From a candidate division WOR-3 bacterium (GTDB lineage: Bacteria > Hydrothermota > 32-111): a DNA stretch of 64,000 bases. Where the stretch lies: contig JBDRZU010000001.1 in NCBI GenBank assembly GCA_039804105.1, positions 1,088,001-1,152,000 on the forward strand, written 5' to 3'. The translations under genes and the position numbers were made by a program. This document shows positions 24,159-34,454 of the stretch, piece by piece; positions within the stretch are counted from its first letter, which is position 1, and each line of letters begins with the position of its first letter. The notes beneath the pieces were generated by a model. The model had not been told where the DNA came from. It saw nothing but the letters and a program-made list of their open reading frames with translations, and made no database searches.

Positions 24159-24960
24159 AATTTTAACAGAAAATTTTTCACCTCTTTTATTTGCTTTTTG
24201 TGGAGGTGTTTTTACATTTCTTTTGACTGCAATTGGTTCTTCAACTGTTTTCATTTTCAAAAAAATTACTTCAAAAATATCTGATTCGATTCTTGGATTA
24301 TCAGGTGGAATAATGCTTGCTGCAAGCGTGTTCTCTTTGCTTTTACCTTCAATTGAGATTTCAAAAAAACAATTACCACTTTTTTTTCTACCTCCAATTT
24401 TAGGTTTTTTACTTGGAGCATTTTTTTTAAAATTACTTGATAATCTACTGCCACATATCCATATAAACAATGAAAAATCAGAGGGAATAAAGACCAACCT
24501 TAATAAAAAAATTCTTTTAATGATAGCGATTACTCTTCATAATATTCCTGAGGGACTTGCGATAGGGGTCTCTTTTGGCTCAATAGCAGAAAAAAGTTTT
24601 GCTCTTTTGATACCATCTCTTGTATTAACTCTTGGAATTGGGCTTCAGAATATACCTGAAGGTGCTGCAATCTCTTTTCCTTTAAGAGGAATGGGACTTT
24701 CAAGAACTAAATCATTCTTGTTGGGGGCATTATCTGCAATAGTTGAACCTGTATTTTCATTTTTGGGGGCTTTTATTGTTTCCTTCTTTTCAACCATCCT
24801 TCCTTATGCTTTATCTTTTAGTGCTGGAGCCATGATTTATGTTGTTGTAGAAGAAGTTATCCCTGAAAGTCAATCAAATGGAAATGTAGATCTTGCAACA
24901 GTAAGCACCATGATGGGATTTACCATCATGATGCTTCTCGATATAATTTTTAATGGCTAA
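24151..24960 (+). CDS. zupT: ZIP family metal transporter (ZupT/GufA)
   Basis: AITLHNIPEGLAIG, IGLQNIPEG, AGAMIYVVVEEVIPE. Confidence 0.9.
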   Translation: MDKILTENFSPLLFAFCGGVFTFLLTAIGSSTVFIFKKITSKISDSILGLSGGIMLAASVFSLLLPSIEISKKQLPLFFLPPILGFLLGAFFLKLLDNLLPHIHINNEKSEGIKTNLNKKILLMIAITLHNIPEGLAIGVSFGSIAEKSFALLIPSLVLTLGIGLQNIPEGAAISFPLRGMGLSRTKSFLLGALSAIVEPVFSFLGAFIVSFFSTILPYALSFSAGAMIYVVVEEVIPESQSNGNVDLATVSTMMGFTIMMLLDIIFNG

Positions 24961-26599
24961 GAATTTCTTTAATATCCTCCTCAACCGACTTTATTGGAAC
25001 AAGATTGAAATTATCCTTTATCACCTGATAAACATTTGGCTTTACAAAAGCAGGCATTGATGGACCAAGTTTTATGTTTTTTATTCCAAGATGCAGTAAG
25101 GTTAATAAGATACAAACAGCTTTCTGTTCATACCATGACAAAACAAGAGATAATGGTAAATCATTCAACTGAAGATCGAACGCTTTGGATAATTCAAGTG
25201 CAATTTTGATAGCTGAATAAGCATCATTACATTGCCCAATATCAAGTAATCTTGGAATTCCTTCAATATCTCCAAAGTTAAATTTGTTAAATCTATATTT
25301 ACCGCAGGCAAGTGTTAGAATTATTGTGTCTTTTGGAAGTTTTGTTGCAAAATCGGTATAATAGTTTCTACCGGGTTTTGCACCATCACAACCACCTATA
25401 AGAACAAATTTTTTGATCTTACCTTGTTTAACCAGATCGATCACTTTATCAGTAACACTTAAAACAGCATTATGCCCAAATCCAACAGTGATATATTTTT
25501 CATCTCCATCAGATTCAAATCCTTCATTTTCGAGCGCTGCTTTAATAACAGGTGAAAAATCTTTATCTTCTCCTATATGTTCAACATCAGGCCATTGAAC
25601 AAGACCTGTTGTAAAAATTCTGTTTTTGTATGTATCTTTTGGTTTTTGAATACAGTTTGTTGTCATAAGTATTGCACCTTTAAATTGGTCAAACTCCTCT
25701 CTCTGATTTTGCCATGCTGATCCATAATTTCCAACAAGATGTTTAAACTTTTTTAATTCTGGATACCCATGTGCTGGAAGCATTTCACCATGAGTGTAGA
25801 TATTTATTCCCTTTCCTTCTGTTTGTTGTAAAAGCAAATAAAGGTCTTTTAGATCATGACCAGAAACAACTATCGATTTACCTTTTATAGGTGTTACTCT
25901 AACCTTTGTTGGAACAGGATTTCCATAAGCAGAAGTATTCGCTTTATCAAGCATTTCCATGACTTTGAAATTTATTTCTCCAACCTTTAATGCAAGTGAA
26001 ACAAGATTATTTTTATCTCTCTCTCCCATAGCCAACCGGTTCAAAGCGTCATGGAAAAATTTGTAAACATCATCATCTTCTACACCAAGAATCATTGCAT
26101 GATCAGCATAAGCAGCTGTTCCCTTTAAACCATAGATAACAAGATGTCTTAACCCTGCTATATCATCTCCATATTTTTTAACTTCTTTATCAAATGTAAA
26201 ATTTTCAGATTGTTTTAAAACTTTTTCATAATCTTTTTCAACCATAAATGTTGCATTTTCAGGTAAATCTTCTTTATCAAGTTTCTTTTCCAATAAAATT
26301 TTTTCATATAAATTCTTTGCTTTCTCTCTTAACTCTTCTCCTTTTTTTATCATGTCAAAAACTTTTTCAGGATCAAAATTAACATTTGTTACGGTAGTAA
26401 ACAATGCCTCAAGAATAAATCTGTCTATCGCTTTTTCAGTTTTACCAAATTTGTTTATCTTTGAAGCATAAACAGATATACCTTCTGTCAGATAAACAAG
26501 CATATCCTGCAAGTTTGAGGTTTGAGGATCTTTACCACACACTCCAAAAGATGTACACCCCTTCCCATTTGCGGTTTGTTCACATTGATAACAGAACAT
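24950..26599 (-). CDS. hcp: Hybrid cluster protein (hydroxylamine/NO reductase)
   Basis: MFCYQCEQT..GC...GVCGK, THGEMLPAHGYP, GGCDG, GQCNDAY, SWYEQKA. Confidence 0.97.
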   Translation of the reverse strand: MFCYQCEQTANGKGCTSFGVCGKDPQTSNLQDMLVYLTEGISVYASKINKFGKTEKAIDRFILEALFTTVTNVNFDPEKVFDMIKKGEELREKAKNLYEKILLEKKLDKEDLPENATFMVEKDYEKVLKQSENFTFDKEVKKYGDDIAGLRHLVIYGLKGTAAYADHAMILGVEDDDVYKFFHDALNRLAMGERDKNNLVSLALKVGEINFKVMEMLDKANTSAYGNPVPTKVRVTPIKGKSIVVSGHDLKDLYLLLQQTEGKGINIYTHGEMLPAHGYPELKKFKHLVGNYGSAWQNQREEFDQFKGAILMTTNCIQKPKDTYKNRIFTTGLVQWPDVEHIGEDKDFSPVIKAALENEGFESDGDEKYITVGFGHNAVLSVTDKVIDLVKQGKIKKFVLIGGCDGAKPGRNYYTDFATKLPKDTIILTLACGKYRFNKFNFGDIEGIPRLLDIGQCNDAYSAIKIALELSKAFDLQLNDLPLSLVLSWYEQKAVCILLTLLHLGIKNIKLGPSMPAFVKPNVYQVIKDNFNLVPIKSVEEDIKEILSH

Positions 26600-26612
26600 A
26601 ATTCCTCCTATT

Positions 26613-27020
26613 TTATATTTTTTTTGTGAGAGTATCTATCGTTGTATTTTCAAGATATTCCAAAAATTCCCTATTAATCTTTTTCACCACATTATCAAAA
26701 ATACATTTTTCAAAGTGACATTTTTTCTTATTAAATGGACAAATATTTTTTTCAAGTGGACCTTCCATTATCTGAAATATATCCAGAAGTGTTACACTGG
26801 AAGGATCTTTTGAAAAAATAAAACCGCCCTGTGGACCTCTTATTGAATCGATAATGCCTCTTTTCGATAAATATTGTAAAACTTTTGAAAGAAGCGGAAT
26901 CGTGCTACCTATCTTTTCCGATAATTCCCCAATCTTCACAACCCTTTTTTCCTTTGCAAGATAAACAACGGAATGTATTGCAGCAAAAGTTGATTCTGAG
27001 ATTTTTATAAGATTTGACAT
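26613..27020 (-). CDS. Rrf2 family transcriptional regulator (3 Cys, Fe-S type)
   Basis: SIRGPQGGF, TLLDIFQIMEG, CPF...C....C. Confidence 0.9.
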   Translation of the reverse strand: MSNLIKISESTFAAIHSVVYLAKEKRVVKIGELSEKIGSTIPLLSKVLQYLSKRGIIDSIRGPQGGFIFSKDPSSVTLLDIFQIMEGPLEKNICPFNKKKCHFEKCIFDNVVKKINREFLEYLENTTIDTLTKKI

Positions 27021-27036
27021 TTTTTCTCCTTTTATT

Positions 27037-27068
27037 ATTTTAATATTTGAATGTTATAATATTAAAAT
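27037..27068. promoter_or_regulatory. Candidate Rrf2 operator overlapping the rrf2-hcp promoter
   Basis: ATTTTAATATT-N10-AATATTAAAAT inverted repeat; all A/T so could be chance. Confidence 0.4.
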
Positions 27069-27078
27069 TAAAAAAATC

Positions 27079-27104
27079 AAGAGGGGAATTTAAATTCCCC
27101 TCTT
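27079..27104 (-). terminator. Intrinsic terminator
   Basis: Perfect palindrome AAGAGGGGAATTT/AAATTCCCCTCTT followed on - by a T-rich run, just after the 27118 stop. Confidence 0.8.
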
Positions 27105-27117
27105 ATTATTTTATTCT

Positions 27118-27564
27118 TTATTTTCTTTTAAGATTTTCTTTTGCAACAACTTCAGACCATTTTTTGCCGCCCATGGTCTCAGTGATATAAACTATCATAC
27201 TATAGATGTTGGCAACTGGAACATATGTGAGCCACTCTATTAGTCTTCCTTTTGTTTCCTTCATCATCTGCGCTGTTGTATAACCTCCAACATATCCGAT
27301 GCAACATCCTTCAACTCCAGCATTTTGGAAACCAACAAAAGCATAGTAAACTCTTAAAATTGGAAAGAAAAGTTGTAATAACTGTAAAAGGTCAACATTG
27401 ACTGCTTTTTCGTTAGCAATGTATCCCATCCTTATATCAAAAATTCCAAGAAGACATGGGACTATTCCACCATTCTGTTTTTGAATTGAGAAGACGGGAG
27501 CTGCAAACAATGATGGTGTTAACAATGAGATCAAAAGAAAGATAATAATAATTTTTTTGGTCAT
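27118..27564 (-). CDS. Hypothetical exported/membrane protein
   Basis: Strong SD AGGAGGAG, signal peptide, own terminator. Confidence 0.7.
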   Translation of the reverse strand: MTKKIIIIFLLISLLTPSLFAAPVFSIQKQNGGIVPCLLGIFDIRMGYIANEKAVNVDLLQLLQLFFPILRVYYAFVGFQNAGVEGCCIGYVGGYTTAQMMKETKGRLIEWLTYVPVANIYSMIVYITETMGGKKWSEVVAKENLKRK

Positions 27565-27593
27565 TTCTCCTCCTTTATGTTATTTTTATTTTA

Positions 27594-28481
27594 TTAAAAA
27601 ATTTTTTTAAAGTCAAGAGAAAATTTTAAGGATGATTGTCCGCAATTTGATCCAACTATATTTTCTTTCAATTCACCTATTGACACTATGACATCAAAAC
27701 CATTTTTGTTAAGTTGTTTTTTTATATCTTCCATTCTTTTATAAGAATCAACACATAAATTATTTTTTATAGATTGATATGTCGGGTTTACAGGTGTCAA
27801 TTTTATGATAAAAGTTTTTTTATCAAAGTAAAGTGCAATTTTTTCAAAGGAGATTTCGTTTGACTCACTTACAGGAAAATTTAAAACTATCTTTCTTTTT
27901 CCAGGTGAATAAAATTCTTTTCCATATTCATTCAAAAATACAAAATTTTCTTTTTCTATTGGAATCGTTTTATCTCTTTCGTTCGTATTGGTGGAATATA
28001 TAGAAAACTGTAGTTGGAAATCGACAAAATTTTCTCTGATTGATAAAAGTTTTTCAAACCATTTTCTTCGATTTTTCGGAAACACAGTTGATATACACGG
28101 TATACAATTTTTATACTTTTTCTTTAATTCTTTAATCACCTCCAAAACATCATCGTTGAAAGATGGTTCTCCCATCCTTGCGAACTGAACTTTGAATTTC
28201 TTAAATCTGTTTGGACTCAAATTTCTTTCATTTATCATAAAATCTATCTGATACATCATTTCATCAAAAGTTAAATTCCTTGCGAATTCGTATCCGCTAT
28301 CACAAAAAACACACCGAACAGGACAGCCAACTTGTGTTGAAACAATTAGAACCCATTTTTCGTGATTTTTGCCAGAAATAACTGGTTCAACATCAACGGA
28401 TTCTATAAATTTTTTGTCTTCCGTTTCAAAGACGAGAACCTTTGAAACTTTTACCATTTCATTTTTTAACAAAAGATTCAT
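27594..28481 (-). CDS. RlmN/Cfr-related radical SAM protein (short, atypical)
   Basis: STQVGCPVRCVFC, RMGEP, C-terminal SNCGQ; lacks the N-terminal domain of RlmN. Confidence 0.8.
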   Translation of the reverse strand: MNLLLKNEMVKVSKVLVFETEDKKFIESVDVEPVISGKNHEKWVLIVSTQVGCPVRCVFCDSGYEFARNLTFDEMMYQIDFMINERNLSPNRFKKFKVQFARMGEPSFNDDVLEVIKELKKKYKNCIPCISTVFPKNRRKWFEKLLSIRENFVDFQLQFSIYSTNTNERDKTIPIEKENFVFLNEYGKEFYSPGKRKIVLNFPVSESNEISFEKIALYFDKKTFIIKLTPVNPTYQSIKNNLCVDSYKRMEDIKKQLNKNGFDVIVSIGELKENIVGSNCGQSSLKFSLDFKKIF

Positions 28482-29307
28482 TCTGCCTCCTTTCAGATGA
28501 GAGTTTCATTGCAAGTTTTACTCCATCAGCAAAAGAAATACTCCCCTGCTTGAAATTTTTGCCTTTCACACTACCGCATAAAAGAACTCTTTTACTCTTG
28601 TTTACAATCTGTGGAAGATTTTTTCTTGAACCTATACACAAAAGAATATCATCAAATACTCTCTCAAAGTGTTTGTTTTTACTTTTGAAAAACACTCTGT
28701 ATTTATCAACCTCAGTCTTATTTATGTATAAAATCTGCGAGAAAGGATAAATATCTTTGACAAATGTTTTTACTTCTTCCAAAAGTTTTTTGTTCACTTT
28801 CCTAAAGTTCCCTTTGGAAATAATGGTTAGTTTTTTTCTTTTTTTTGTTAAAGTCAAAGATTGATCGAGTGCAACCTCTCCACCACCTATAACACAAATA
28901 TTTTTCCCTTTAACTTGATCAAAACGATTCTTAAGGTTTAACTCCCGAAATTTTTTTAAAACTTTTTCCTTTCTCCCAGTTGCAATTATACAATATTTCG
29001 TTGAGTATTCGTTTTTTTCAGTTTTTACGATTACAAAACTTTTTCTTACTTCTATTTTTATGCATTTTTCAAACTTTATTTTTCTTTTATATTTTTCCAA
29101 TTGTTTTTCAAAGTGAGAACATAATCTATTCCCTTTAACATCACAAAAACCCGGAAAATTTGTTACTCGGTGAGCATACCAGATATCACCACCTATTCTA
29201 TTCTGTTCAAGGAGTAAAACTTTTTCAAAATCTTTTAATATCTGTAAAAAGAATCCAATTCCAGCACATCCACCACCAATGATTATAAAATCATATTTTT
29301 CCATCAA
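28459..29307 (-). CDS. FAD/NAD(P)-dependent oxidoreductase, thioredoxin-reductase-like but without CxxC
   Basis: IIGGGCAG, NFPGF, IIATG, VIGGGEVA. Confidence 0.75.
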   Translation of the reverse strand: MMEKYDFIIIGGGCAGIGFFLQILKDFEKVLLLEQNRIGGDIWYAHRVTNFPGFCDVKGNRLCSHFEKQLEKYKRKIKFEKCIKIEVRKSFVIVKTEKNEYSTKYCIIATGRKEKVLKKFRELNLKNRFDQVKGKNICVIGGGEVALDQSLTLTKKRKKLTIISKGNFRKVNKKLLEEVKTFVKDIYPFSQILYINKTEVDKYRVFFKSKNKHFERVFDDILLCIGSRKNLPQIVNKSKRVLLCGSVKGKNFKQGSISFADGVKLAMKLSSERRQNESFVKK

Positions 29308-29833
29308 AAATATCCCTTGAATTTATTATTTTTGCAAAACCTCGTTTCATATTTTCAATAGAATATCTATGGTGTTTTAATTTTCTAGATTTCACAAGAT
29401 CCTCAACTACATAATTTTCAAAACCATTTTCAAACGACTCTCTAACATTACTTTCAACACATAATTCGGTCATTACACCAACAAAAAAGATTTGTTTGAT
29501 TTTCAAAAGTTTTAAAAGTTTTTTAAAACTTTTTTTTTGAAAAACCGAATAGGAATTCTTTCTTACAATATAGTAATTTTTGGGTAAATATATCTTTTCA
29601 TAAAGTTCAAGATCGTTTCCATAAGGTAAATGTTTCCACCATTTGTTAAAATTTATCTTTCTCTTTGACGGAATAAATTGTAAAAAAATTATAGGACTTT
29701 TATTTTCTTCAAATATTTTTATAACTCTATTTATTTTTTGGGCTAAATTTTCTGCTCCCCTGATGTAGGATTTAGAACTTTTTTCAAAAAAATAGTTTTG
29801 AACATCAACTACTAAAAGCAAACTTTTTCTCAT
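29291..29833 (-). CDS. Isochorismatase-family cysteine hydrolase (start revised to ATG 29833)
   Basis: LLVVDVQNYF, KNSYSVF, GVMTELCVES (D-K-C triad); SD GGGGGTG. Confidence 0.88.
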   Translation of the reverse strand: MRKSLLLVVDVQNYFFEKSSKSYIRGAENLAQKINRVIKIFEENKSPIIFLQFIPSKRKINFNKWWKHLPYGNDLELYEKIYLPKNYYIVRKNSYSVFQKKSFKKLLKLLKIKQIFFVGVMTELCVESNVRESFENGFENYVVEDLVKSRKLKHHRYSIENMKRGFAKIINSRDIFDGKI

Positions 29834-29849
29834 AAAATTAAACACCCCC

Positions 29850-29930
29850 AAAAAAAAGAGCCATCCGGTCTGGATGGCTCTCGCCTGACATAACCTGATT
29901 GGATTATATATTTTTAACAAAAAAAATCAA
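29850..29930 (-). promoter_or_regulatory. Promoter plus short terminator-containing leader (candidate attenuator/riboswitch)
   Basis: TTGATT-16-TATAAT (29930-29903), then AGAGCCATCC-AGACC-GGATGGCTCT stem and a T-tract ending 16 nt before the ATG. Confidence 0.75.
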
Positions 29931-29996
29931 GATATTTATTGTTGATAATTTATTCTTTTTTGGTAAAATAAAAAATTAGATTTAAAAAGGAGAGTT

Positions 29997-32147
29997 ATGC
30001 TTCAAATATCTCAAAACCTGAAGAGTGGAAAGATCGAACTGATTGAGGTTCCAATACCTTCTTGTAAAAAAAATGGTGTTATAGTTAAAACAGTTTATTC
30101 TTGTGTTTCAATGGGAACAGAATCGATGAAAGTAAAAACCGGAAAAATGAACATTATTGAAAAAGCAAAAGAGAAACCCGAACAGGTCAAACAGGTAATC
30201 GATTCTGTGAAACAACTTGGTCTTGTTTCAACTTACAGAAAAGTTATGAATAAACTTGATTCGTTGTCACCTCTTGGATATTCATTGTCAGGAATAGTTG
30301 TCGAAACTGGAAGTAATGTAAACACATTGAAAATTGGCGATAAGGTTGCCTGTGGAGGTGGTAATTATGCTACACACTCAGAATTTAACTATATTCCCGA
30401 AAATCTATGTGTAAAATTAAAAGAAAATACAAACATGAAATATGCTTCAATGGCAACAATTGGTGCTATAGCGATACAAGGTTTAAGACAGGCAAATCTA
30501 CAATTTGGTGAAACAATCGGAATCATTGGAATGGGACTCATAGGTCAGTTGATGCTTCAAATAGCCAACGCTTCAGGGTTTAAGGTTCTTGCAATCGATA
30601 TTGACAAAGAAAGAGTTGAACTCGCTTTAAAACACAATGCAGCAAGAGGTGCAATTTTTGGAGAGGATAATTTAAAAGATATATCTCTTGATATGACGGA
30701 CGGTTTTGGACTCGATGCAGTATTTTTGGCCTCATCCACAAAATCGAATGGTCCTATCGAAATAATACCTGAAATAATAAGGGATAGAGGAAGAGTTGTT
30801 GATATCGGGATAACGAATCTGGATATACCCTGGCAACCATATTACGACAAAGAGTTGAACATATTCATGTCAAGATCTTATGGCCCAGGTAGATATGATC
30901 CACTTTATGAAGAACACTCAATAGATTATCCAATTTCTTATGTAAGGTTTACAGAACAGAGAAATATAAAAACTTTTATAGATTTAATTGAAACTGGAAA
31001 GATGGATCTTGACTATATTATTTCAGAAGAGATCGATTTTACTGAAAGCGATAAATTCTACAACAATTTGACAAACGAAAAAAACAAATATCTTTCAGTT
31101 GTTTTTAAATATCAAAATAAAGAAGTAGATATAAAAAAGGACAGAACATTAATCAATGAAAAAAAATTAGACACAAAAAAAATAAATCTTGGTTGCATCG
31201 GAGCAGGGAATTTTGCAAAAACTATGCTTTTTCCAGAATTGAAAAATATTAAGGATCTTTCTTTTTACTTTTTATCAACATCTACTGGAATTTCAGCAAA
31301 AGATAGTATGAAAAAATTCAATTTTTCAAAAATAACAACACAAACCGATGAATTGTTGAATGATAAAAAAATTAATCTACTCATGGTTTTAACAAGACAT
31401 TCTACACATTCAAAATATGTTATGGAGGGATTAAAAAGAGATCTCTTTGTTTATACTGAAAAACCATTATGCCTTGACGAAGATGAACTAAAAAATATAG
31501 AAAAAGTTTATACAGAATCCAGAGGAGATCTTTTTGTTGGTTATAACAGGAGATTTTCAAACCAAATTTTAAAAATAAAAAATTTCTTCGAAAGAGTTAA
31601 TCAACCAAAACACATTTACTACAGAGTCAACGCAGGATATCTTGAAAAAACCAACTGGTATAACGATTATGAAGAGGGAAATCGATTTATCGGTGAAGGT
31701 GGACATTTTGTGGACACATGTTTATTTCTAATTGATAAAAATCCAGTTTCAGTTTATGCTACATTCATAGGACTTGGAAGAACAGACGAAAAAACAAAAG
31801 ACAACATATCGTTAACCATAGATTTTGAGGATGGTTCAGTAGCAAACATTCTCTATTTCACCTTTGGTGATAAATCTTTACCAAAAGAATATCTTGAAAT
31901 ATCGTCCGGAATGCAAAGTGCTATCCTTGACAATTTTAAAAGTGTTGTTTTCCATAAAAATGGATCTACAAAAAAAATTAAATTTTGGTCCGCGGGAAAA
32001 GGCCATAAACAGGAAATGATCTATTTAACAGATACAGTTCTCGGAAAAAAGAATAATCCGTTTACCTTTGAACATCTGAAAAAAGTTTCACTTATAACAT
32101 TTAAAGCAATAGAAAGTGCAAACAAAGGAGTGCGAATTGAAATCTGA
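29997..32147 (+). CDS. Bi-domain oxidoreductase (Zn-ADH-like + Gfo/Idh/MocA), polysaccharide biosynthesis
   Basis: PLGYSLSG, SRSYGPGRYD, IGAGNFA, EKPLC, VGYNRRF, GEGGHF. Confidence 0.88.
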   Translation: MLQISQNLKSGKIELIEVPIPSCKKNGVIVKTVYSCVSMGTESMKVKTGKMNIIEKAKEKPEQVKQVIDSVKQLGLVSTYRKVMNKLDSLSPLGYSLSGIVVETGSNVNTLKIGDKVACGGGNYATHSEFNYIPENLCVKLKENTNMKYASMATIGAIAIQGLRQANLQFGETIGIIGMGLIGQLMLQIANASGFKVLAIDIDKERVELALKHNAARGAIFGEDNLKDISLDMTDGFGLDAVFLASSTKSNGPIEIIPEIIRDRGRVVDIGITNLDIPWQPYYDKELNIFMSRSYGPGRYDPLYEEHSIDYPISYVRFTEQRNIKTFIDLIETGKMDLDYIISEEIDFTESDKFYNNLTNEKNKYLSVVFKYQNKEVDIKKDRTLINEKKLDTKKINLGCIGAGNFAKTMLFPELKNIKDLSFYFLSTSTGISAKDSMKKFNFSKITTQTDELLNDKKINLLMVLTRHSTHSKYVMEGLKRDLFVYTEKPLCLDEDELKNIEKVYTESRGDLFVGYNRRFSNQILKIKNFFERVNQPKHIYYRVNAGYLEKTNWYNDYEEGNRFIGEGGHFVDTCLFLIDKNPVSVYATFIGLGRTDEKTKDNISLTIDFEDGSVANILYFTFGDKSLPKEYLEISSGMQSAILDNFKSVVFHKNGSTKKIKFWSAGKGHKQEMIYLTDTVLGKKNNPFTFEHLKKVSLITFKAIESANKGVRIEI

Positions 32148-33270
32148 AATCATCAAAGAATCTATTGAAAAACTTTTTGATTACCTAGAAAAAAATGATT
32201 ACAAAGGATATGATCCATTTGATGGTTTGAACTCTTTTCTTTATCCTTTTACTTTTAAAAATAAATTCCTTTCAATCGCTTTACAGCAAAGTGTAAGGAG
32301 ATTACCTTTTAACATTAGGCCTTTTATTGGTATAAAAAAAGAAAGATCAACAAAAGGAATTGCATACATAGCTTCCTCATATCTCAAATATTATAAATTA
32401 ACGCAAAATAAAAAATTTTTAGAAAGAGCGGAAGAACTTATCAACTGGGTTATACAAAATCGTTCACCATATTTCGATAACTATTCATGGGGTAACCATT
32501 TTGACTATGTTTCGAGAGTTTTTTATCTAAAAAAAGGAATGCCTACAGTTGTTTGGACGGGACTAATCGGGAGTATCCTTGTTGAATTTTTTCTTGAAAC
32601 AAAAAAAGAGGTATACCAAGATGCTATTTTCAAAACAGCAAAATTTATTCTTGAGGATCTTCCAACTTATGATTATGACCATACATTTTGTATAAGTTAC
32701 ATTCCTTTTCAGAAAAAAAATGTTCACAATGCAAATGTTATCGGTGGATCATTTCTTGCTCAAGCAAAAAAGATAACCGGCATCGATACAGGAAAACTGG
32801 AAAGGTTGTCAATGGAATATACAGCAAGATTTCAACATGAAGATGGGAGTTGGTATTATGGTGAGAGAAAAGACCTTCATTGGATAGACAATTTTCATAC
32901 AGCTTATGTTCTTGATAGTTTTAAAAGGTATCAGGAATTCTCTGGTGATAATACCTTTAAGGAAAATATTAAAAAAGGATTTGATTATTATAGAAAAAAC
33001 TTCTTTGATGGTGATATTCCTAAATACTATTTCAGCAAAACATACCCTATAGATATACAGTGTGTCTCCCAATCGATTGAAACTCTGGCTAACTTTAACG
33101 ATATTGAAAAATCATACAGTGTTGCTCTTTGGGCTATTAAAAATATGCAGGAAAAAGATGGTCATTTCATTTTTAGAAAATATAGGAAAATAAAAAATAA
33201 AACCCCAATGTTACACTGGGGATTAGGAACGATGGCACGAGCACTGACTTTCCTTCTTGAAAAATTATGA
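32137..33270 (+). CDS. Polysaccharide-locus (alpha/alpha)-barrel protein (TTG start after AAGGAG)
   Basis: YKGYDPFDGLNS, WGNHFD, HNAN, WIDNFHTAY, YPIDIQ. Confidence 0.7.
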   Translation: MKSEIIKESIEKLFDYLEKNDYKGYDPFDGLNSFLYPFTFKNKFLSIALQQSVRRLPFNIRPFIGIKKERSTKGIAYIASSYLKYYKLTQNKKFLERAEELINWVIQNRSPYFDNYSWGNHFDYVSRVFYLKKGMPTVVWTGLIGSILVEFFLETKKEVYQDAIFKTAKFILEDLPTYDYDHTFCISYIPFQKKNVHNANVIGGSFLAQAKKITGIDTGKLERLSMEYTARFQHEDGSWYYGERKDLHWIDNFHTAYVLDSFKRYQEFSGDNTFKENIKKGFDYYRKNFFDGDIPKYYFSKTYPIDIQCVSQSIETLANFNDIEKSYSVALWAIKNMQEKDGHFIFRKYRKIKNKTPMLHWGLGTMARALTFLLEKL

Positions 33271-34454
33271 AAAAAGATGTACTTTTTGTTGTTGAAAACC
33301 TTTCATTTCCTTTCGATAGAAGAGTATTTAGAGAATCTGTCTCTTTAAAACAAAATGGTTACAATGTAACCGTAATTTCTCCAAAGGGTATTGAAAGGGA
33401 TCAAAAATCTTATGAAATTTTTCAAGGTATACATATTTACAGATACCCTTTACTTGTTAAAGCAAAAAATAAATTCGATTATCTTTTAGAATATTCTTTT
33501 TCGTTCATATTCATTTTCTTGTTATCTATAAAAGTTTTAATGGAAAGAAATTTTCATGTTATACATATTGCTAATCCTCCAGATATTTTTTTCCCAATTC
33601 TATTCTTTTATCGTATGATTGGCAAAAAGATAATTTTTGATCAACATGACCTAACGCCTGAGTCATATCTTTCAAGATTCAGAGATGAAAGAAAAGATTT
33701 TTATTACAGGTTTCAAATAATTTTTGAATTTTTAACCTATAAAGTTTCAAATTATATTATTGTAACAAACAGATCATATTTAAAAATAGCAAAAAAGCGT
33801 GGTAGGAAAAAGAAAAATGTTGTTATAGTAAGAAATGGACCACAAAAAAAATTCTTTGATTACAAAGGCATTTTTCCTCAACTGAAAGATAATTTCCAAT
33901 ACCTTGTTGTCTATATTGGAATTATGGGAGTCCAGGATGGAGTTGATTACCTTATAAGATCGATAGATCATTTTGTCAATGTCTTGGGCCGAAAGGATAC
34001 ATTGTTCGTTTTAATTGGAAAAGGTGATGATTTTGAAAATTTAAAAAATATGGTAAAAGAATTCAAAATTGATAACTATGTTAAATTCACAGGAAGAATA
34101 TCCGATGAAGAAGCTTTAAAATATTTGTCAACAGCAGATGTAGCTGTTTCACCAGATCCTAAAAATCCTTTAAATGATCTTTCAACAATGAACAAAGTTA
34201 TGGAATATATGATAACAAAATCTCCGATAGTTTCTTATGATCTTAAAGAAGCAAAATATTCCGCGGGAGAAAGTGCTTTATATGTTGAAAACAATGATTA
34301 TAAAATTTTTGCAGAAAAAATCTCTTACTTACTTGACAATGAACCTGAAAGGAAAAAGATGGCTGAAATTGGCTACAAAAGGGTTGTTGAACATTTATGC
34401 TGGGAAAAACAGGAAAAAAATCTTTTAGATTTGTATAATGGGATAAAAATATGA
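33267..34454 (+). CDS. Glycosyltransferase family 4
   Basis: ENLSFPFDRRVFRE, FDQHDL.PE, GIMGVQDG, STMNKVMEYM. Confidence 0.9.
   Translation: MKKDVLFVVENLSFPFDRRVFRESVSLKQNGYNVTVISPKGIERDQKSYEIFQGIHIYRYPLLVKAKNKFDYLLEYSFSFIFIFLLSIKVLMERNFHVIHIANPPDIFFPILFFYRMIGKKIIFDQHDLTPESYLSRFRDERKDFYYRFQIIFEFLTYKVSNYIIVTNRSYLKIAKKRGRKKKNVVIVRNGPQKKFFDYKGIFPQLKDNFQYLVVYIGIMGVQDGVDYLIRSIDHFVNVLGRKDTLFVLIGKGDDFENLKNMVKEFKIDNYVKFTGRISDEEALKYLSTADVAVSPDPKNPLNDLSTMNKVMEYMITKSPIVSYDLKEAKYSAGESALYVENNDYKIFAEKISYLLDNEPERKKMAEIGYKRVVEHLCWEKQEKNLLDLYNGIKI

Follow-up and report, generated by a model that had tools for sequence, protein, structure and literature searches.

The 64,000-nucleotide stretch of DNA analysed here (the window; positions 1,088,001 to 1,152,000 of contig JBDRZU010000001.1, assembly GCA_039804105.1) comes from a candidate division WOR-3 bacterium. 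On its minus strand, at positions 29896-29850, it contains a conserved leader of about 47 nucleotides, which extends from a predicted transcription start to a run of uridines and precedes an operon that begins with an isochorismatase-family gene. The leader is probably one copy of an undescribed riboswitch-like class of RNA that controls the supply of p-aminobenzoate (pABA). It has the general properties of a riboswitch, namely a conserved, structured and covarying 5' leader and a coherent regulon across distant taxa. The original prediction had offered control of termination by a ligand, a protein or the ribosome, or a stand-alone small RNA, and among these the riboswitch is the best reading. 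We consider the element to be real and widespread: a cis-regulatory RNA of pABA supply, most likely a riboswitch, that has apparently not been described before.

The promoter-like site, the hairpin and the run of uridines lie on the minus strand where they had been predicted, with eleven base pairs in the stem and eight uridines in the run (Table 1). Downstream of TATAAT the minus strand reads AGGUUAUGUCAGGCGAGAGCCAUCCAGACCGGAUGGCUCU, followed by the eight U, and transcription is predicted to start near A29896. Six of the eleven pairs of the stem are G-C and the run of uridines follows directly on its 3' side, as is characteristic of an intrinsic (Rho-independent) terminator. The terminator is followed by GGGGGUG and then by the ATG at position 29833 of the isochorismatase-family gene. 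The gene on the upstream side (29997-32147, plus strand) is transcribed divergently, and the hairpin is therefore not the 3' end of that gene, as had been pointed out before. Relatives also contain hexamers resembling -35 and -10 elements, and the end of the -10 hexamer, as read off the sequences, is about 6-10 nucleotides 5' of the conserved 5' strand. The public runs with this DNA are DNA runs of hot-spring metagenomes and provide no usable RNA evidence. The sole RNA run yielded one 246-nucleotide contig of a relative, comprising the start of the divergent gene, the motif and 17 nucleotides beyond it; because it is an assembled contig, it is uninformative about the start, the end and the occurrence of transcription.

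Taken alone, the promoter and terminator scans and the fold score are not above chance. The region 26000-34000 contains 47 promoter-like sites, against 39.2 +/- 6.0 in shuffled sequences, and seven terminator-like sites, against 4.0 +/- 2.5, and the fold z-score of the 81-nucleotide stretch is only -1.32. The feature is lifted above chance by its conservation. In blastn comparisons with 40 relatives, the whole intergenic region aligned within the genus only; in other genera and families, where the flanks no longer align, only the 47 nucleotides from the predicted start to the run of uridines were matched, at 81-98% identity. The proposal that the first gene is preceded by a cis-regulatory leader containing a terminator is borne out by this conservation far beyond the genus. 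The copies found by blastn include two genomes of family f5 that lack a homologue of the downstream gene. No remnant of a tRNA or tmRNA was found near the site, and a repeat element was rejected since the motif occurs once in its 1.81-Mb genome.

A covariance model was built from 13 hand-aligned copies, with the hairpin as the only structure supplied. It found a single copy in the window's own genome, and 25 of the 150 phylum genomes sampled gave one copy each; these copies were not chosen on the AUGUCA letters of the core one by one. Copies were present in 10 of the 12 genomes of family f1, 2 of the 5 of f2 and 12 of the 15 of f5, and there were none in all other families sampled among the 150 genomes. 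A pattern derived from the core matched 84 stretches in a collection of species genomes, 80 of which were fetched, and at least 120 stretches in metagenomes; the 160 pattern-scan loci discussed below are 80 from each source. Among the 80 genome loci, 57 carry deltaproteobacterial or Thermodesulfobacteriota labels, and the others are labelled Zixibacteria, TA06, Dehalococcoidia, Acidobacteriota, Leptospirales, Ignavibacteria or 'Thermotogae', or have no label. These taxon labels are those of the records, and some are doubtful, such as that of an 'Acetofilamentum' metagenome-assembled genome that falls within the window's genus. Cultured carriers include Desulfobacca acetoxidans and members of Syntrophobacter and Desulfatibacillum. 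Two matches look like chance or are unexplained: locus L213 of the metagenome scan has neither the helix P1 described below nor a run of uridines, and in locus L080 the motif has no recognised gene within 1238 nucleotides downstream.

Evidence that the leader folds as an RNA comes from its 5' end, where GGU, together with zero to five further bases, pairs with the ACC in the loop of the terminator. Both strands of this helix, called P1, were left unconstrained by the search pattern, and their pairing is therefore an independent test. The mean number of contiguous P1 pairs in 95 distinct copies from 104 loci was 4.82, against 2.75 +/- 0.12 after shuffling of the partners (maximum of 3.14 in 1000 shuffles). 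In 98 model-aligned rows (96 loci and two partial matches of reverse-strand hairpins), the core pairs were distributed as UA 70, UG 11, CG 10 and GC 4; GC 87, GU 5 and AU 4; GC 51 and AU 43; and GC 40, AU 24, UA 8 and CG 7. Compensatory changes thus occur at four pairs, and none of 500 shuffles reached the observed measures. The P1 partners can pair in 92.8% of cells, against 29-53% for slid partners, and at least three contiguous P1 pairs are present in 78 of the 80 metagenome loci. Covariation in the upstream regions of relatives, which had been suggested as a check, is abundant, and it places the 5' GGU with the ACC of the terminator loop instead of the earlier antiterminator pairing of GGUU with AGCC.

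The strands of P1 enclose a nearly invariant core of AUGUCA, GGY, four variable bases, GCC and AYCC. When the 5' domain was folded alone with RNAalifold (44 of 88 distinct sequences, every second one being used), the fold obtained comprised P1 and a 3-bp inner stem of GGY with GCC, separated by a 6-by-5 internal loop. The bases of the inner stem pair in 99.7% of cells with zero double-sided changes; since the stem never changed on both sides, it is compatible with the data and unproven. An alternative pairing of AUG (columns 9-11) with CAU of the left terminator arm found no support, because column 28 alternates between U and C and A9 is fixed. The first 30-36 nucleotides or so can thus be modelled as a small hairpin aptamer made of P1, the conserved internal loop (AUGUCA / AYCCM) and possibly the 3-bp inner stem. 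The terminator was predicted in all 95 distinct copies, with hairpin energies from -12.3 to -27.8 kcal/mol, and some G+C-rich copies have weak runs of uridines (L071, L077, L090, L107). Its stem covaries as that of any terminator does (pair 28-58: UA 39, UG 32, CG 24; pair 22-64: AU 69, GC 15, GU 8).

Of the 160 pattern-scan loci, 152 have a recognisable same-strand gene of one of few functional kinds after the motif, usually tens of nucleotides away at most, and so do all 25 covariance-model loci. In tblastn searches with representative proteins, the first gene of the 80 genome loci was a Na+/solute symporter gene in 36 cases, pabA followed by pabB in 31 and an isochorismatase gene in eight; the remaining loci had a gene for an ABC binding protein (two), an aromatic-acid MFS gene (one), folP (one) or none (one). 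The 80 metagenome loci gave pabA in 36 cases, the symporter in 33, isochorismatase in two, folP in one and none in two, and six loci had too little DNA. The 25 loci of the phylum are divided into 12 with isochorismatase, 12 with the symporter, and L073, a copy that the regular expression missed and that lies upstream of an isochorismatase-family hit in the same genome. For the three common kinds of gene, the median distance from the end of the motif to the first aligned residue is 18-47 nucleotides. None of folE, folB, folK and folC is the first downstream gene in the 160 loci.

The chorismate-binding proteins of these loci belong to pABA synthesis. Five of the seven tested pass the NCBIfam cut-off for pabB, two fall short of it by under 2 bits, and the trpE cut-off is not approached by any of the seven. 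The gene after pabB encodes a class IV aminotransferase (PabC family) in nine of ten cases tested, and the loci are therefore pabABC operons. The same cut-offs and the PabC-family gene exclude a tryptophan or anthranilate function of the pair formed by the glutamine amidotransferase and the chorismate-binding protein. The symporter is similar to PanF and PutP and scores below every equivalog cut-off. The downstream genes point to pABA and folate; guanidine derivatives, nicotinamide, S-adenosylmethionine (SAM) and ions, which had been named as candidate ligands, do not fit them.

The physiology of the host agrees with a need for external or unconventional pABA. The window genome, in two contigs and 85% complete by marker genes, has folE adjoining the gene of dihydropteroate synthase (DHPS), and at this completeness no Chorismate_bind (PabB) domain and no chorismate synthase were found in it. 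All of five other carriers have DHPS, and none has Chorismate_bind. Carriers that have DHPS without a chorismate-binding enzyme need pABA from elsewhere, and the motif precedes the only candidates. We infer that the window operon provides pABA with no need of chorismate, either through salvage or along a new route; its four genes, the last of which encodes a small membrane protein, are a candidate chorismate-independent source of pABA. An isochorismatase-family gene also follows the motif in relatives, which keep the order of the isochorismatase, flavoprotein and radical-SAM genes. DHPS was found in 129 and Chorismate_bind in 25 of the 150 genomes of the phylum sample, so that most of the phylum must take pABA up or obtain it along an unknown route.

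Two further observations concern these enzymes. The single f1 genome with a chorismate-binding enzyme (G004) encodes a 603-residue PabB fused to a PabC-like part (L283, 197-2005) on a 3-kb contig with no motif upstream, and its motif-controlled isochorismatase gene (L042/L012) has an in-frame TGA. This combination fits redundancy and may be due to functional replacement, to sequencing error or to contamination. The DHPS of the window genome (L162, 1099-2280; G000:C1, about 145.1-146.3 kb) has 394 residues, with an unassigned N-terminal extension of about 130 residues, and open frames of similar length, about 390-420 residues, recur across the phylum.

Based on the overlap of the two folds, a mechanism of control can be proposed. 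The 3' half of the 5' fold consists of the left arm and the loop of the terminator, and the aptamer is therefore embedded in the terminator. In the window, positions 29867-29875 make up the upper part of the left arm, together with the loop, in the terminator fold, and the GCC of the inner stem doubles as the base of the conserved part of the left arm. At least two of the three core bases of the P1 3' strand are paired in the minimum-energy fold of the terminator in 32 of the 95 distinct copies; at least one is paired in 62, and none in 33, including the window. Of the 25 model-found copies, 24 retain U28 of the left arm, opposite which 18 copies have A and seven have G; this fixed base facing a varying partner shows that the left arm is constrained beyond pairing, and more tightly than the right. 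No alternative fold able to compete with the hairpins of -12 to -28 kcal/mol was found in the 95 distinct copies. The shared bases, the constraint on the left arm and the lack of a competing fold favour two exclusive states with termination as the default, and hence an ON switch.

According to this mechanism, transcription would start at or beside the element. In the absence of the ligand, the right arm would pair with the left arm and transcription would terminate at the run of uridines ahead of the genes. Bound ligand would stabilise the 5' fold, which would keep the left arm, stop the terminator from forming and let the operon be read. It is quite likely that a small molecule is sensed directly. 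If it is, the overlap of the folds suggests that an ON switch is the somewhat better bet, with an OFF switch as a serious contender. The ligand of an ON switch would, with an even or slightly better chance, be an intermediate of the pterin branch, 6-hydroxymethyl-7,8-dihydropterin or its pyrophosphate, a preference that is based on analogy with the HMP-PP riboswitch. The pterin compound is the co-substrate of DHPS, and pABA supply would thereby be matched to pterin supply. For an OFF switch, pABA itself is the candidate. In five genomes (G003, G002, G012, G011, G008), the start codon directly follows the run of uridines with no separate Shine-Dalgarno sequence, and the sole purine-rich stretch is the right arm of the terminator (GGAUGG; AAGGAUGG in G008), so that the hairpin may also mask ribosome binding.

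Repression by the end product is the main rival reading, though a less likely one. The binding of pABA or folate to an H-type pseudoknot, with GGU paired to the terminator loop, the stem intact and the conserved linker in the groove of the stem, would favour termination, and the end product would repress its own synthesis and uptake. Such simple feedback fits the finding that all controlled functions concern pABA supply. The order of the strands, a-b-a'-b', is that of an H-type pseudoknot, and the ACC of the window is located in the loop, where it could pair with the stem intact. Most vitamin riboswitches are OFF switches. However, no alternative fold was found that would block the hairpin and the run of uridines when no ligand is bound, and the range of regulation by an OFF switch would therefore be small. 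The terminator stem takes at least two of the three core P1 bases in a third of the copies (the 32 mentioned above), which is unexpected if both helices coexist in the bound state, and the drift between U-A and U-G at pair 28-58 speaks against sequence-specific triples on that helix. With folate as the ligand, folE, folB, folK and folC would be expected under control, but apart from a single folP no such gene comes first downstream of the motif.

Attenuation by a protein is improbable. A conserved RNA-binding protein would read single-stranded AUGUCAGG and the hairpin, and set termination by the pABA or folate status of the cell. Invariant letters without covariation are what a protein site would produce, and short leaders of this kind are known from TRAP- and PyrR-type control. 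However, records labelled as at least six distant groups have the same core, and the first genes behind it are of three unrelated kinds. A regulator gene common to the neighbourhoods of the loci was not noticed (no systematic search was made for one), and the covariation of P1 means that selection acts on an RNA fold.

There is very little probability that the element is a free-standing small RNA of about 47 nucleotides, or that its hairpin is the ordinary terminator of some upstream or antisense transcript. A promoter-like site directly before a terminator would yield a short transcript, but the element lies directly upstream of a same-strand gene of few functional kinds at nearly all loci, it is present in a single copy per genome, and its terminator loop and 5' tail are conserved and covarying, neither of which an ordinary terminator needs. 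Ribosome-mediated attenuation is less probable still and is contradicted by the comparison of copies: the 17-codon upstream open reading frame noted before does exist in the window, its AUG opening a frame across the hairpin, and the best Rfam score belongs to a leader-peptide family (Phe_leader, 27.9 bits), but this AUG is the invariant AUG of the motif, about 5 nucleotides from the predicted start and with no Shine-Dalgarno sequence, the frame is not conserved, ranging from 2 to more than 100 codons in the 95 copies (at least 100 codons in 23; a stop at codon 3 in L068 and L073), loop lengths differ by non-multiples of three, and the Phe_leader match covers the terminator part only and is far from the gathering score of 55.

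Several points weigh against an ON riboswitch of pABA supply. ATGTYAGG was part of the search pattern, which held the linker and both arms constant in the 160 loci. The constancy of the core in these loci is therefore circular, and the informative sets for core conservation are the 25 model-found and the blastn-found copies only. The genome and metagenome scans share contigs (L142 = L164, L131 = L219), and their counts are not independent; the folP case, in which the gene lies 295 nucleotides downstream of the motif, was found in both scans, probably on one and the same contig (L131 = L219). Covariation is limited to P1 and the terminator, and the invariant inner stem and internal loop would fit a protein-binding site equally well. 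The ACC of the window sits in the terminator loop, so that P1 and the terminator do not strictly exclude each other in this copy and, sterically, an H-type pseudoknot could form. Vitamin riboswitches far more often mediate repression by the end product than activation by a partner precursor. That the symporter and the isochorismatase operon serve pABA supply is suggested by co-regulation only, and DHPS without PabB is the rule in the phylum, which is consistent with the proposed function and not specific to carriers of the motif. All statements on ligand binding, on the start and termination of transcription and on readthrough are deduced from sequence.

The positions of the leader and of the operon are summarised in Table 1. 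The fourth gene of the operon is also found after the radical-SAM gene in two relatives of the same genus (L119 and L151), with 78% and 86% identity, and the translation of the third gene contains a CxxxCxxC motif. The divergent neighbour encodes a 716-residue fusion of a zinc-type alcohol dehydrogenase and a Gfo/Idh/MocA oxidoreductase, and the open reading frame after it (32116-33270) matches no Pfam family. Beyond the end of the operon, positions 24950-27020 of the minus strand carry the gene of an Rrf2-family regulator directly upstream of that of hydroxylamine reductase (hcp). Rrf2 and hcp are the usual nitrosative-stress pairing, and they are unrelated to the leader.

Table 1. Elements of the leader and genes of the operon in the window.
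Feature	Position	Strand	Details
Promoter-like site	29903..29930	-	TTGATT 29930-29925, 16-nt spacer, TATAAT 29908-29903; scan score 10/12
P1 5' strand	29892..29896	-	G29895-C29867, G29894-C29868, U29893-A29869; U29892 opposite G29870 (wobble); A29896 unpaired in this copy
AUGUCA, 5' side of conserved internal loop	29886..29891	-	AUG invariant in 13 hand-collected copies (two alignments)
GGC-GAGA-GCC, possible 3-bp inner stem with 4-nt loop	29876..29885	-	RNAalifold, 5' domain alone
AUCCA (3' side of internal loop), then G and ACC (P1 3' strand)	29867..29875	-	Alignments, pair counts, RNAalifold
Intrinsic terminator	29850..29882	-	11-pair stem 29882-29856, loop AGACC, U8 29857-29850; centroid -19.4 kcal/mol
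Gene 1, isochorismatase-family cysteine hydrolase, 180 aa	29291..29833	-	PF00857, E 1.8e-33; below every NCBIfam equivalog cut-off
Gene 2, thioredoxin-reductase-like FAD/NAD(P) oxidoreductase, 282 aa	28459..29307	-	Pyr_redox_2, E 1.2e-16; overlaps gene 1
Gene 3, radical-SAM protein, 295 aa, distant likeness to RlmN/Cfr	27594..28481	-	PF04055, 24.7 bits (cut-off 29.5); TIGR00048, E 7.5e-16, below cut-off
Gene 4, 148-aa protein, hydrophobic N-terminus, no family match	27118-27564	-	Open reading frame translation, family search
Bidirectional terminator closing the operon	27078-27105	-	Perfect palindrome AAGAGGGGAATTTAAATTCCCCTCTT, between the last operon gene and the Rrf2-hcp genes

We speculate that the new class senses the pterin-pyrophosphate branch and switches on pABA supply, as a folate counterpart of the HMP-PP (thiS) riboswitch, and that its regulon names importers of pABA and a chorismate-independent route to it; the complete chain is doubtful, one chance among several. 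If it were true, the regulon would name a Na+-coupled family of pABA importers, to which the symporter is a candidate. It would also name a chorismate-independent pABA route, consisting of an isochorismatase-like hydrolase, a flavoprotein and a radical-SAM enzyme, in bacteria that have DHPS and lack the end of the shikimate pathway. The three-enzyme operon would thus be a candidate answer to the question of where many anaerobes with DHPS and without PabB obtain their pABA. An aptamer of about 35 nucleotides embedded in a terminator would rank among the smallest natural switches and be only the second of that architecture. The regulation of pABA supply is of general interest, since this supply is the step with which sulfonamides compete.

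The RNA class has apparently not been described before. A scan of positions 29300-30500 of the window with the 4227 models of Rfam 15, at E values up to 10, gave nothing at the gathering thresholds, the best match being that to Phe_leader, and agrees with the original view that no recognised riboswitch class is present. The loci of 20 relatives had no matches at the gathering thresholds of Rfam 15 either, and the leader of locus L092 gave nothing above 17.5 bits. Full-text searches of articles outside subscription journals, supplements not included, brought up no description of an RNA element ahead of pab genes, and the main text of survey papers from the Breaker laboratory examined for them does not contain the terms chorismate, anthranilate, isochorismatase, pabA or trpE. 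Within the literature searched and Rfam 15, the pABA branch of folate synthesis has no known riboswitch.

The leader shares features with several known systems. Like the tetrahydrofolate riboswitches THF-I and THF-II (the latter known as the folE motif), it is a cis-regulatory RNA that acts in folate metabolism. In THF-II, too, a conserved internal loop lies within a small hairpin, and both classes control folate transport and genes of the pterin branch. Unlike them, the leader precedes pabABC, the symporter or the isochorismatase operon; neither Rfam model matches it, and folP is the first downstream gene in only one or two of the 160 loci. The ZTP riboswitch (pfl motif) is an ON switch that reports folate shortage and in which a 5' strand forms a pseudoknot with a 3' element, and it controls purine and one-carbon genes. 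The leader differs from it in size and core sequence, does not match its Rfam model, and has a regulon with no overlap with that of ZTP. The preQ1-I, SAM-II and guanidine-III riboswitches are likewise short and have the same order of 5' strand, stem arm, loop partner and second arm. In the leader, which matches none of their models, the second helix is a complete terminator with its run of uridines, and it competes with the first helix in a third of the copies.

The closest parallel is the HMP-PP riboswitch, with which the leader has no likeness in sequence or model, no Rfam family being above chance on it. The leader is associated with pab and folate genes instead of thiS, thiG and thiH, its distribution is mostly in genomes labelled Thermodesulfobacteriota, and it shows neither the consensus of that class nor its association with HET-P and thiamin. 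The architecture is nevertheless shared, in that the core of the leader overlaps the left arm and the loop of the terminator, the hallmark of HMP-PP being an aptamer embedded in a terminator with a conserved loop. As described in the report on it (PMC6478431), the HMP-PP riboswitch (thiS motif) is an ON switch whose very small aptamer lies almost wholly within an intrinsic terminator, it senses the precursor of one branch and causes the partner precursor to be made and imported, and its motifs come from two phyla, including several classes of Firmicutes. By comparison with that description (PMC6478431), the leader has the same kind of tiny putative aptamer embedded in a terminator, the same unusually conserved terminator loop and an upstream strand that pairs into the hairpin region, and its regulon likewise consists of the synthesis genes of the other branch and a transporter. 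The HMP-PP switch balances two precursors that are later joined (PMC6478431), and the leader, for which the ON direction is only deduced, may do the same for pABA and its pterin partner.

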